From positions 67,795-131,794 of the forward strand of contig PLXZ01000001.1 in assembly GCA_003151615.1 (NCBI GenBank): a stretch of DNA of 64,000 bases, given 5' to 3'. The stretch comes from Candidatus Tayloriibacteriota bacterium. Its GTDB lineage: Bacteria > Patescibacteriota > Minisyncoccia > Phycocordibacterales > PALSA-1337. Positions within the stretch are counted from its first letter, which is position 1. Each line of letters opens with the position of its first letter. The translations under genes were made by a program, and so were the position numbers. Under the pieces are notes generated by a model, which worked only from the letters and a program-made list of their open reading frames with translations, was not told where the DNA came from and made no database searches. Positions 6,474 to 7,554 of this stretch are shown here, piece after piece.

Positions 6474-7554
6474 TTATTCCTTCAGCCAATACCAAAACTG
6501 ACTCTCCACTTCTTGCTTGAATTCATACGCATCAGCATGAGAGAGAACACCGAGATATGAATGCAATGATCCGAACAGAGTCGTTTCTTTTATCTGTCCG
6601 CCTTTAAATTTAGTGACCTGTTCCCGTAATTTTTTCATCATCCGCTTCTTTGTTTTAGTCCTGACAAGAATATGATATGGTAGTACGACATACCCGAGAA
6701 AATCGATACCCTGCGTGCACGACCGTATTTCAACTTTCCGAGGATGGAGTTCAAGAAGCAGTTTTTCCCTCAAAAAAGTCCTAACCAAAGGTAATATTTT
6801 TTGCAAATAATCAATACTGCCAGAAACGATGACAAAATCATCCGTATACCGCGCATAGTTTTTAACCTTAAGCCCATGCTTCATAAACTGATCGAACTCA
6901 TTCATATAAACATTGGCGAAAAGCTGGGAAGTAAGGTTCCCTATAGGTATTCCTACCCGGCGCGAAGCGCCGAGTACTCTCTCTCTCTCTCTCTCTCTCT
7001 CTCGTACTGCTGACCGAATAACTTTCGATGATTTCCTTAAGAAGGTTCTGAGTCTCGGCATCTTTCACTTTTGCATTGATGATTTCCAAAAGCACGTCAT
7101 GATCGACGCTGTCGAAAAATTTCTGAACGTCGCATTTGAGGACAAAACAGGGACGGGTATAGTTGGCACTGATTTTTCTAATAGTGTCCCGAAGATACAG
7201 CATTCCCTTGTGAGTGCCTTTGCCGATTCTGCAGGAGAACGAGGTGGAAATGAAGGTTGGCTCAAATATGGGATTCAATATTTTAAACACCGCGTGATGG
7301 AGGACTCTGTCACGGACGGTTGCCTTGTAGATATGACGTCGTTTCGGATCGCATATCCAAAAAGGATAATATCCGCCGTGCCGGTAGGTACAATCTTTAA
7401 GTTCCCGATAGAGCTTGAAAATGTGTTCTTCAAGTTGCCGCTCGAACCCTGCCACATCAGGCCTGTTTCGCTTGTCCGACTTGAACACATTCCACGCGCG
7501 AAAGAGCGTCTGTGGAGAAATTATTGACCAGTATATATCCTTATAAATTTTCAT
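6474..7554 (-). CDS. DGR reverse transcriptase, split into two overlapping ORFs (6898..7554 and 6474..7061) by a +1 frame change inside a (GA)13 tract
   Basis: N-terminal LFRAWNVFKSDKRNRP...YYPFWICDPKRRHIYKATVRDRVLHHAVFKILNPIFEPTFISTSFSCRIGKGTH; motif 4 IPIGNLTSQ (DGR-specific I/LGxxxSQ); motif 5 YTDDFVIV; both ORFs contain (RE)n from the repeat. Confidence 0.85.
6977..7003. repeat. dinucleotide microsatellite (CT)13 on + strand, (GA)13 in RT sense, encoding (RE)n; site of the RT frame break
   Basis: ctct+(ct)10+ctc read directly at 6977-7003, flanked by gtact...gtact. Confidence 0.95.

Follow-up and report, generated by a model that had tools for sequence, protein, structure and literature searches.

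A perfect GA microsatellite interrupts the reverse transcriptase (RT) gene of a DGR located in the 64,000-nt stretch of DNA analysed here (the window), and this (GA)n tract is probably a contingency switch operated by slipped-strand mispairing, through which DGR mutagenesis is heritably turned on or off, the window carrying an OFF allele. The initial annotation of the window had proposed such a phase-variable switch, and the proposal is now supported by tract length alleles found in otherwise identical flanks, by intact RTs with 11 and 14 GA units, and by the recurrence of the tract in about 110 lineages among the matches listed.

The DGR of the window and its interrupted reverse transcriptase

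The element is a DGR on the basis of its RT motifs, its A-only pair of template repeat (TR) and variable repeat (VR) in a target ORF and its bAvd gene, with the RT of the window allele being interrupted (Table 1). ORF 6474..7061 contains the DGR-type RT signature, GIPIGNLTSQ ((I/V/L)GxxxSQ) and YTDDF (YxDD), and the closest PDB match of the RT is the Bordetella bRT (8ub7, E 6e-43). One RT and one VR only are present in the window. The bAvd gene is divergent from the RT gene, their start codons being back to back and 2 nt apart, and this orientation is conserved in relatives. As for the TR/VR pair, the 15 A-site substitutions announced earlier were confirmed, with 15 mismatches at TR adenines and no non-A mismatch over 115 nt; the VR ends 3 nt ahead of the stop codon of the target gene. 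The latter had no Pfam match, and an Rfam scan of the window gave no match in the DGR region.

Table 1. Features of the DGR region, in window coordinates
Feature	Position	Strand	Basis
RT C-terminal fragment, 195 aa: GIPIGNLTSQ, YTDDF, thumb	6474..7061	-	RVT_1 match; dN/dS 0.080
RT N-terminal fragment, 218 aa: fingers up to KCDVQKFFDSVDH and helix LLKEIIESY	6898..7554	-	RVT_1 match; dN/dS 0.063 vs. lineage B
GC-rich hairpin directly 3' of the tract, 10 bp, tactcggcgc-ttc-gcgccgggta	6954..6976	-	Folding
(GA)13G microsatellite within the RT coding sequence	6977..7003	-	Sequence; 11-16-unit polymorphism in identical flanks
bAvd accessory gene, 116 aa	7557..7907	+	PF22296, E 5e-17
Template repeat (TR), AAC/AAT codons at diversified positions	7958..8072	-	Repeat comparison with VR
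DGR target gene, 262-267 aa, VR at C-terminus	8422..9225	-	ORF; VR
Variable repeat (VR), differing from TR at 15 adenines of the latter only	8428..8542	-	TR/VR alignment

The tract is a perfect 27-nt (GA)13G repeat inside the RT coding sequence, where the sense (minus) strand reads ...GGTCAGCAGTAC(GA)13GTACTCGGCGC...; it had previously been written c(ga)13, which designates the identical tract in a register one base off. It is the only dinucleotide run of at least five units in the 64-kb window and the sole period-2 array detected there by TRF, which excludes chance. On one side, ORF 6898..7554(-) matches positions 9-107 of the Pfam RVT_1 profile, reads through the tract and stops 79 nt beyond it in the wrong frame. 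On the other side, ORF 6474..7061(-) matches positions 100-204 of the same profile; its true RT frame starts at the tract, the portion upstream of it (7004-7061) being fortuitous. Both ORF fragments translate the tract as (RE)n. With an RVT_1 half on either side of the perfect repeat, the RT frame does break inside the tract, as originally read.

The window allele (n = 13) does not encode a continuous RT, its frame being broken nowhere but at the repeat, and no further stop or frameshift was found across the 1,054 nt of the gene. When the gene was rebuilt in silico with 9-17 GA units, a single ORF was obtained solely with 11, 14 and 17 units, coding for RTs of 358, 360 and 362 aa, respectively; the prediction that the gain of one unit or the loss of two would give an RT of about 360 aa is thus borne out by n = 14 and n = 11. 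Two other descriptions of the interruption were rejected. Concerning a split enzyme, with the second ORF translated independently, this ORF has its ATG ahead of the tract in the window, and no general start signal was found; in many lineages with ...GAGTAAAAATGCG..., the ATG beyond the tract is out of the RT frame. A simple insertion with target-site duplication was also discarded, since deleting the tract and one flanking GTAC (30 nt) leaves the frame broken.

Tract length alleles among near-identical strains

Tract lengths were compared in 26 contigs from two sister lineages, A (that of the window) and B, all being consensus contigs of public assemblies, among which some ENA and JGI assemblies may share source samples. 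Within either lineage, the contigs agree at 100.0% over 650 nt of flanking sequence, one base in contig L005 excepted. In identical flanks, lineage B displays tracts of 11, 12, 13, 14, 15 and 16 units, and lineage A tracts of 12 and 13 units, to which a hybrid with 15 units is added; only OFF alleles were seen in lineage A. The length heterogeneity to be looked for according to the initial annotation is therefore present in public assemblies, with n = 11-16 within 100% identical flanks. Every allele was met with in more than one contig or sample: the 12-unit allele occurs in 13 contigs of lineage B, and the 13-unit allele of lineage A in six contigs carrying the corresponding first ORF, plus L005, from several JGI and ENA samples. 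A single sampling series yielded several tract alleles, an indirect hint of switching within a population.

Intact in-frame RT alleles also exist, namely P0145 (360 aa, n = 14, contig L088) and P0149 (358 aa, n = 11, contig L209), so that the natural products are full-length proteins of 358 and 360 aa vs. truncated ones of 199-222 aa. In-frame alleles account for 3 of the approximately 38 contigs of this species. A protein search with the repaired RT, in which no relative exceeded 68% identity, had indicated that no in-frame allele exists; this was an artefact of clustering at 90%, the cluster representative being a 218-aa fragment, and the in-frame alleles were exposed by listing the members of the 90% cluster. 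Three contigs start 0-3 nt from the tract, vs. about 0.2 to 0.4 expected for random contig ends; such breaks are what within-sample length heterogeneity would produce, which is an indirect hint. Three marks of an SSR contingency locus, namely a coding repeat long enough to be unstable, repeat-number polymorphism and toggling between full-length and truncated products, are found at this locus.

Selection on the RT and diversification of the target

Read in its own RT frame, each half of the gene is strongly conserved between the window and L088: dN/dS is 0.063 for the N-terminal half (dS 0.43) and 0.080 for the C-terminal half (dS 0.56), vs. more than 1.8 in the wrong reading frames. Both halves of the RT are under strong purifying selection.

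As for the target gene, its 90% cluster comprises 45 members, 15 of which were aligned. Conservation among these is about 95-100% outside the VR, hypervariability being seen at the positions that TR adenines encode, and the set with diversified VRs includes strains with lineage-A markers. The DGR is active in this population, and the recent activity first claimed from the A-only mismatches of the window VR is also visible in the aligned targets. The 125-nt VR is identical among lineage-B contigs with n = 12, 15 and 16, all OFF alleles, the VR being readable for OFF alleles only, as both ON contigs stop before it. Contigs assembling through the VR are 0 of 2 for ON vs. about 7 of 24 for OFF alleles, a suggestive trend that is far from significant.

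GA tracts at the same RT loop in other lineages

Metagenome contigs were scanned by DNA pattern, a procedure that is unbiased for frame. Pure GA tracts of 17-55 nt were found at the same RT loop in at least 120 loci, forming about 110 clusters at 90% nucleotide identity. The (RE)n insertion that homologous RTs might carry at this loop is thus represented, as pure GA repeats, in about 110 independent lineages among the matches listed. The tract is further present in a distant RT clade (about 35% identity), in which the order target-TR-avd-RT is conserved. In IMG/VR, the DNA pattern used for the scan had no match.

Frame calls were made by tblastn of the two RT halves, replacing motif regular expressions (39 loci uncalled; L140 and L173 are among the calls changed). 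Among the matches listed, 49 loci are OFF(+1), 38 are OFF(+2) and 20 are ON, 13 loci being without call, which means that, of the 107 callable loci, 20 are in frame and 87 (81%) are not. An extra stop or frameshift was found in about 6 of these 107 listed loci only, leaving about 94% of them without any other lesion. Both halves were recovered as full-length single HSPs in 63 listed loci, of which 49 are OFF. The ON fraction is 19% of the dereplicated metagenome lineages, vs. 33% if frame were neutral (binomial p = 0.002; matches listed), and the frame classes are not uniform among the matches listed (chi-square p = 0.006). This ON deficit fits OFF as a favoured resting state, and it fits equally well a recoding that allows expression whatever the frame; ascertainment is another potential cause, as stable-ON lineages would lose long pure tracts and leave the scan. 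A GTDB scan, whose best 80 loci contained in-frame tract-bearing RTs only, was rejected as an estimate of frame state, since intact genes come first when loci are ordered by tblastn coverage.

The tract is patchily distributed on the RT tree, with at least eight gains or losses over 119 close relatives on a rough NJ tree, and many relatives contain degenerate remnants of it (e.g. RESKTLSLF, ERERESK). Its recurrence could come about without selection, through biased mutation starting from an ERR-coding seed (GAG-AGA-AGA) of the loop. The length of the loop varies from 132 to 228 nt among relatives, with many unrelated insertions. Compared with the Bordetella bRT (PDB 8ub7), the 22-residue insert encoded by the tract replaces a 2-residue turn, and it forms the sole long low-confidence stretch (residues 182-198, pLDDT below 50) of an AF2 model that is otherwise confident (pLDDT 86). 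Insertions are thus tolerated at the site of the tract.

A hairpin next to the tract

The 29-nt segment of the hairpin lying directly beside the tract has a folding energy of -16.9 kcal/mol (z -4.4). Within its 76-nt context, z is -0.87 and the centroid structure holds an 8-bp version of the hairpin, the short segment alone being significant. Only about a quarter of the other lineages (26%) reach -8 kcal/mol or lower at this place. Over all loci, the segment between the tract and PIGN has a GC content of 52% vs. 36% in the gene, and a mean folding z of -1.07 vs. -0.16 in tract-less controls. This hairpin is not accounted for by the switch model. Concerning programmed-frameshift signals, none had been obvious at first inspection, and the site check agreed: no canonical slippery heptamer and no fixed offset were found (+1 in 49, +2 in 38 and 0 in 20 loci among the matches listed), the offset differing even between near-identical strains.

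Proposed switch and alternative explanations

In the model that we favour, the (GA)n tract would be a hypermutable simple-sequence repeat placed in a disordered surface loop of the DGR RT, which is preceded by the FFDSVDH motif and the helix after it and followed by the GIPIGNLTSQ motif. GA units would be gained or lost, most likely by replication slippage, and the catalytic two-thirds of the RT would thereby shift in or out of frame, with a full-length enzyme expected solely at n = 2 mod 3 (11, 14 or 17 units). Any other length, including the 13 units of the window, would be OFF and give a truncated fingers fragment, with no rewriting of the VR. As OFF cells would be unable to rewrite the VR, the variant of the target protein would be frozen until a slip back into frame lets adenine mutagenesis resume. 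The toggling of the frame by the tract would thus make DGR activity a heritable, stochastic on/off trait. We infer that slipped-strand mispairing is the source of the length changes, which would be reversible within one lineage, that no active RT is presumably obtained from OFF alleles, and that selection may favour possessing the switch. A broader version is tentative, being possible rather than probable: across Patescibacteria, DGR mutagenesis itself might be a contingency trait, selection maintaining the (GA)n microsatellite of the disordered RT loop as a heritable, stochastic switch with OFF as the resting state, and bursts of targeted hypermutation would alternate with the locking in of a successful receptor variant.

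The RT might alternatively be made from any allele, RNA polymerase or the ribosome slipping by ±2 nt on the tract, which would then be an attenuator keeping a mutagenic enzyme at low dose, the frame of the DNA hardly mattering; a 2-nt shift re-pairs perfectly on a period-2 repeat, and the adjacent hairpin might help. Such recoding would suit the 81% of callable listed loci that are out of frame, yet in about 94% of cases free of other lesions, the presence of both offsets (49 and 38 listed loci), as expected if frame is irrelevant, the strong hairpin directly after the window tract and the structured, GC-rich tract-to-PIGN segment across loci; it also has a precedent in the DGR RT of Quimbyvirus, which is frameshifted but apparently active (PMC8008677). 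We nevertheless regard it as unlikely, given the lack of a fixed offset and of a canonical slippery heptamer, the majority of lineages without the hairpin (26% at -8 kcal/mol or lower), the non-uniform frame classes (chi-square p = 0.006, matches listed) and the identical VR of the OFF alleles n = 12, 15 and 16, although selection on a good variant could do likewise. To our knowledge, efficient transcriptional slippage is documented for homopolymers and not for dinucleotide repeats. It seems similarly improbable that the tract is a tolerated mutational accident without any role as a switch, in which a purine-rich E-R-R/K seed (GAG AGA AGA) of an insertion-tolerant loop expands repeatedly into a microsatellite, the OFF alleles being frequent loss-of-function casualties among dispensable DGRs whose frame is occasionally rescued by slippage or recombination. 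The patchiness of the tract (at least eight changes over 119 relatives), the degenerate remnants RESKTLSLF and ERERESK in many of these, the many unrelated insertions accepted by the loop and the fact that ON alleles are not enriched all go in this direction. However, the ON fraction is significantly below, and not equal to, the neutral 1/3, and pure tracts of up to 55 nt persist in this coding region in lineages that differ elsewhere by 10% to more than 60%. Moreover, about 94% of the 107 listed tract-bearing loci have no second lesion and dN/dS is only 0.06-0.08, from which it follows that these genes have been long enough under functional selection for the OFF states to be necessarily short-lived or reversible.

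The two alternatives named in the initial annotation, a decaying pseudogene and an error in repeat length, are both disfavoured by the data. That the RT of this genome is simply dead and decaying is very unlikely: the window allele is indeed out of frame and lineage A has OFF alleles only, but the 1,054 nt are free of further stops and frameshifts, both halves have a dN/dS of 0.06-0.08 and about 94% of the listed loci have no other lesion; the VR equals the current TR at all 100 non-A positions, strains with lineage-A markers have different VRs, and the tract still varies (12 vs. 13 units) between 100%-identical flanks. As for a sequencing or assembly length error in this low-complexity tract, dinucleotide repeats are prone to PCR stutter and several contigs are of low coverage (cov 2-4 in their names); the 13-unit allele is nonetheless found in at least seven contigs from several JGI and ENA samples and the 12-unit allele in 13 and 6 contigs, reads and the final k-mer (k141) are much longer than the 27-nt tract, and the pattern is common to different studies and to contigs in several naming styles, which makes such an error hardly credible.

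Significance of a proposed repeat switch in the RT

For a ligand-binding protein that works, mutagenesis without restraint should be costly. A repeat switch in the RT would provide a simple means of controlling DGR activity at the population level, most cells keeping their variant while a small, constantly renewed minority diversifies; if this is true, a hypermutable locus gates a hypermutation machine. Patescibacteria are thought to depend on surface interactions with their hosts. In the literature searched by full text, no description was found of a repeat in, or of repeat control of, a DGR RT, in agreement with the initial statement that a microsatellite-switched DGR RT is undescribed, and the present locus would be the first contingency locus found reported for uncultivated Patescibacteria within that literature. 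Such elements escape any DGR survey in which intact RT proteins are the starting point and, since 81% of the listed tract-bearing RTs are out of frame, the prevalence and activity of CPR DGRs are probably underestimated. Metagenomic reads give direct access to the length of the tract, which makes the hypothesis testable in existing time series.

Comparison with known systems

In Helicobacter pylori, oipA, sabA and hopZ contain coding CT/AG repeats and undergo phase variation by slipped-strand mispairing. As in these genes, the repeat unit (CT being AG on the other strand) lies within the ORF, the number of units toggles the frame, and alleles of unequal length coexist in otherwise identical strains. 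The H. pylori repeats, however, lie near the 5' end of the gene, where the signal peptide of a surface protein is encoded, and the organism is a host-associated pathogen, whereas the present ones, which are long (8-27 units), occur mid-gene and code for an enzyme loop, their carriers being Patescibacteria with a free-living or episymbiotic way of life, and the product to be switched is a mutagenesis engine and not a surface protein.

In reduced endosymbiont genomes, poly(A) frameshifts are rescued by transcriptional slippage. There too, a repeat puts genes out of frame that have remained intact in all other respects and are still under selection; that case involves homopolymers and many genes, vs. 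a dinucleotide in one loop of one gene family here.

Phasevarions are based on SSR-switched mod/hsd methyltransferases, and switchable mutators are exemplified by the tandem-repeat alleles of Salmonella mutL. With both, the present system would share the switching of a regulator or mutator by an SSR, one stochastic switch setting the downstream variability (second-order variation). The effect differs, being the targeted adenine mutagenesis of one ligand-binding domain by a retroelement instead of a change in genome-wide methylation or mutation rate. A 2025 review of phase variation covers phasevarions and mentions no retroelement (PMC11868660).

Among the DGRs themselves, the element resembles that of Bordetella phage BPP-1 (bRT-Avd-TR; PDB 8ub7) by its RT with IGxxxSQ and YTDD motifs, its bAvd, its A-only TR/VR pair and the position of the VR at the C-terminus of the target; it departs from it by the repeat-encoded 22-residue insert, bRT having a 2-residue turn. 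The orientation and order of avd in the window match the CPR pattern ("B3" architecture) reported by Wu et al. (2018) for 90% of CPR DGRs (PMC5758913). Finally, the DGR RT of Quimbyvirus, a phage, lies in three overlapping frames, which were explained by two programmed frameshifts, each at a fixed site (Benler et al. 2021, PMC8008677). Quimbyvirus is comparable to the present case in that A-specific VR variation among near-identical genomes goes together with a DGR RT spread over more than one ORF; repeat-length polymorphism is not mentioned in the cited part of that report, whereas here the frame state varies by allele, with both offsets and in-frame forms.

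The DGR cassette and its interrupted reverse transcriptase

The window carries a diversity-generating retroelement (DGR) whose reverse transcriptase (RT) gene, on the minus strand at 7554-6474, is interrupted only once. Its template (TR) and variable (VR) repeats show 15 differences over 115 nt, all at TR adenines, with no non-A mismatch. All defining features of a DGR except an uninterrupted RT were found in the window allele, which belongs to a genuine DGR with the CPR-typical architecture designated B3 by Wu et al. (PMC5758913). No second RT or VR was found within the window. 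The start codons of the accessory gene bAvd (ATG at 7557, plus strand) and of the RT (ATG at 7554, minus strand) lie head to head, 2 nt apart, so that the promoter of each must sit within its neighbour, and any transcript running from the TR into the RT would be antisense to avd. The same divergent orientation, that of B3, is seen in the related loci L006 and L114.

Features of the DGR cassette and of its neighbourhood (window positions)
Feature	Position	Strand	Remarks
RT N-terminal ORF	6898..7554	-	218 aa; RVT_1 profile positions 9-107
RT C-terminal ORF	6474..7061	-	195 aa; RVT_1 profile positions 100-204
GA tract	6977-7003	-	perfect 27-nt (GA)13G
GTAC palindromes	7004-7007 / 6974-6977		flank the tract on both sides
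Hairpin	6954-6976	-	10-bp GC-rich stem, TTC loop, directly after the tract; -16.9 kcal/mol, z -4.4
bAvd gene	7557..7907	+	opposite strand to RT
TR	7958-8072	-	115-nt comparison with VR
DGR target gene	8422..9225	-	VR at its end, just before the stop codon
VR	8428-8542	-	inside the target gene
446-aa ORF	11080-12420	-	putative; looks like a large serine recombinase; ~1.9 kb from the target gene
LOOT RNA (Rfam RF03000)	31425-31545	+	full-length match, 88 bits vs. gathering score 46.4
12-nt tandem repeat	2945-2972		2.3 copies of CAAATTCGTAAA, immediately upstream of the tRNA gene
tRNA gene	2977-3048

The tract (minus-strand context ...TCGGTCAGCAGTAC(GA)13GTACTCGGCGC...) is the sole dinucleotide run of at least five units in the 64 kb. 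When the gene was rebuilt in silico with 9-17 units, a single RT ORF was obtained only with 11, 14 and 17 units (358, 360 and 362 aa, respectively). All that the initial annotation had stated as fact, including the 27-nt tract, the two ORFs and the 15 A-site substitutions, was verified; it had also predicted that adding one unit or removing two would fuse the ORFs, as is the case with 14 and 11 units.

Length variation of the tract

Six contigs, of ENA and JGI origin, encode the exact 218-aa N-terminal fragment with its 13-unit tract, and a further contig, L005, encodes the exact 195-aa C-terminal fragment. The tract measures 27 nt in all five contigs L001-L005, which are 99.4-100% identical to the window. 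The 90%-identity protein cluster containing the window RT fragments has 21 members, whose lengths (199, 201, 203, 205, 218, 220, 222, 358 and 360 aa) are those predicted for differing unit numbers. DNA was available for most of them and was completed with L197, from a metagenome pattern scan.

GA unit number (n) in the two sister lineages
Lineage	n	Frame	Contigs
A (the window's)	12	out of frame	6 contigs
A (the window's)	13	out of frame	6 contigs with the 13-unit N-terminal ORF, and L005
B	11	in frame	L209
B	12	out of frame	13 contigs
B	13	out of frame	3 contigs
B	14	in frame	2 contigs, L088
B	15	out of frame	L197
B	16	out of frame	3 contigs

The two lineages are ~10% divergent, while within each of them the 650 nt flanking the tract are 100.0% identical, except for one base in L005. 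Apart from that base, the tract is thus the sole variable site in the 650 nt compared, which, judged from the assembled contigs, is the signature of slipped-strand mutation. The length heterogeneity that the initial annotation had proposed to look for is present in assemblies (11-16 units in B, 12 or 13 in A), and intact, in-frame (ON) alleles occur naturally. A 15-unit allele was also found in an apparent A/B hybrid. Downstream of the cassette, lineage B has PsbP-like and Zn-ribbon genes in place of YibE_F and Fur, and the cassette may therefore move or recombine between genomes.

Location of the insert in the protein

The intact allele aligns to the solved Bordetella bRT (8ub7) over residues 16-177 and 200-353, and the 22 residues in between stand where the latter has a two-residue turn. 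In an AlphaFold2 model of this allele, overall confidence is high (pLDDT 86, pTM 0.81), except for the repeat-encoded residues 182-198 (pLDDT < 50). Relatives differ in the length of this loop (132-228 nt, motif to motif), which accepts unrelated insertions; long ones were observed in the GTDB relatives L073, L015, L080 and L087, that of L073 (LRGNDKEGRGNDGEG) resembling a translated palindromic repeat element. The loop is a hot spot for insertions in general. Given such tolerance, (RE)n of any length would be bearable, and the DNA repeat could grow or shrink with the in-frame enzyme unharmed.

Stems similar to the hairpin adjoining the tract (cagccTTCggctg, cggccTTCggccg) follow it in roughly a quarter of the other lineages. 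The two GTAC copies pair in the MFE fold, with the repeat looped out, and the segment from the tract to the PIGN codons is GC-rich and more structured than tract-less controls.

Distribution of the tract among related RTs

The repaired RT aligns with its best database relatives at 66-68% identity and below. Most of them have 349 aa and no insert, whereas a scattered minority (354-388 aa) carries (RE)n-S at exactly the same loop. The (RE)n that the initial annotation suggested seeking in homologous DGR RTs was therefore found; in the two closest relatives with DNA, L006, (GA)12G, and L007, (GA)13, it is encoded by pure GA, in frame.

JGI metagenome contigs were scanned, irrespective of frame, for a (GA)8G run with PIGNLT codons 15-45 nt behind it. 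This yielded at least 120 loci, which group at 90% nucleotide identity into about 110 clusters; among the matches listed, the tracts measure 17-55 nt. The same pattern gave no match in IMG/VR. Frames were called from the relative frames of the two RT halves by tblastn. Among the 120 matches listed, 49 had an offset of +1, 38 of +2, 20 were in frame and 13 gave no call; stops occurred in only three HSPs and an extra frameshift in about three loci. Both halves were full-length single HSPs in 63 of these loci, 49 of which were out of frame. After dereplication of the matches listed, the in-frame fraction was 19%, vs. 33% if frame were neutral (p = 0.002). Possibly the out-of-frame (OFF) allele is the favoured resting state, or frame is irrelevant and expression proceeds via recoding, or else long pure tracts disappear from lineages in which stable ON is selected, and the scan misses these lineages.

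Identity to the window RT is no more than ~35% in some tract-bearing RTs that have the same target-TR-avd(divergent)-RT layout (L114), and related lineages have their own allelic series, such as the tcgaaaatc...cagccttcggctg group (23, 49, 51 and 55 nt, the 51-nt allele being in frame). The feature is not confined to this locus but is a property of Patescibacterial DGRs that is widespread and had been overlooked.

Three contigs begin 0-3 nt from the tract, for a random-end expectation of about 0.2 to 0.4. The 35-kb contig Ga0187882_1000754 carries two separate tract-bearing RT loci (L122 and L178); one tract, of 20 nt, is in frame and the other, of 28 nt, is not. A single genome can therefore accommodate two independently switchable DGRs. 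At 586-772 of L134, GA tracts of 21 and 23 nt, 119 nt apart and each followed by a PIGNLT-coding motif, appear to stem from local duplication of the segment that contains the tract.

Diversification of the VR

Of the 45 proteins in the 90% cluster of the target protein, 15 were aligned. Their first 220 residues are ~95-100% conserved, and hypervariability is found where TR codons are AAC, AAT or GAC (consensus SSLDSxGxRVxVGxFDSxGLxVxxYWDDxRxDxIGLSAARK), including in proteins with lineage-A markers. These patterns indicate that the DGR works in this population. The window VR matches the current TR at 100/100 non-A positions and was therefore written from it. An identical 125-nt VR is shared by lineage-B OFF contigs with 12, 15 and 16 units; hence the repeat changed at least twice with the VR unchanged. 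A VR that stays the same is expected of an OFF state, but could also result from selection for a good variant.

The ON contigs L088 and L209 both stop short of the VR, and several OFF contigs (10-563 kb; among L210, L197, L223, L224 and the window) continue across it. Heterogeneity of the VR confined to cases with the RT ON would account for this, but the numbers are far too small for a conclusion. At least three TR versions exist among strains. In L220 (ERZ20000014; target gene 255-1043, 12 units), whose TR is identical to the window's, the VR has several non-adenine mismatches (e.g. TAT TGG vs. TGG AAC), which suggests that another version of the TR was its template or that it came in by recombination. 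L002 (Ga0311341_10120358) lacks ~39 nt relative to window 8047-8085 (the TR 5' end and 13 nt upstream), owing either to a deletion in its TR or to mis-assembly of TR and VR.

A probable phase-variable RT and the alternative explanations

The phase-variable switch proposed by the initial annotation is supported as far as sequence data reach, and a classical contingency switch on an unusual target, the best-supported reading, is probably correct. Slipped-strand mispairing would alter the unit number, presumably reversibly within a lineage; one length class in three would give an active RT and adenine mutagenesis of the VR, and the other two a truncated fingers fragment, no RT and a frozen VR. 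The switch itself may be under selection. The initial annotation had also envisaged a sequencing or assembly error in tract length, which is extremely unlikely given the recurrence of the 13-unit allele in contigs from ENA and JGI samples, and a dead, decaying RT. The latter is very unlikely: between the window (OFF, lineage A) and L088 (ON, lineage B), each half being compared in its own RT frame, dN/dS is 0.063 for the N half (dS 0.43) and 0.080 for the C half (dS 0.56), vs. more than 1.8 in the other reading frames, and neither half has additional stops or frameshifts.

Alternatively, the RT could be expressed despite its frame, through a +/-2 shift of the RNA polymerase or ribosome on the tract. 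On a period-2 repeat, pairing is fully restored after such a shift, for the polymerase as for both ribosomal tRNAs, and the hairpin and the structured segment behind the tract would suit it; it is nonetheless improbable, since the hairpin occurs in only about a quarter of the lineages, frame offsets are not fixed and the OFF alleles with 12, 15 and 16 units share one VR. A neutral microsatellite that arises repeatedly in a loop able to tolerate it is unlikely as well: the patchy distribution, with the tract gained or lost at least 8 times on a rough NJ tree, and the degenerate remnants in relatives are in its favour, but secondary lesions are nearly absent.

Comparison with known systems

Outer-membrane genes with CT repeats in H. 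pylori phase-vary by a coding-region dinucleotide repeat, and the switch considered here would work in the same way; phasevarions and switchable mutators offer a conceptual likeness. Among DGRs, the closest precedent is the RT of Quimbyvirus, which is encoded in three frames; its authors explain this by programmed frameshifts and remark that earlier DGR RTs had been predicted as single ORFs (PMC8008677). A term search of two large DGR surveys (PMC8144416, PMC11661182) revealed no interrupted or repeat-bearing RT, and the words 'retroelement' and 'reverse transcriptase' are absent from a 2025 phase-variation review (PMC11868660). The feature was not found in the full-text literature on DGRs with phase variation, frameshift or Patescibacteria, where subscription papers are thinly covered and absence is no proof. 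The proposed RT switch is directly testable in existing metagenomic reads, and represents a new combination of SSR phase variation and DGRs, each already known.
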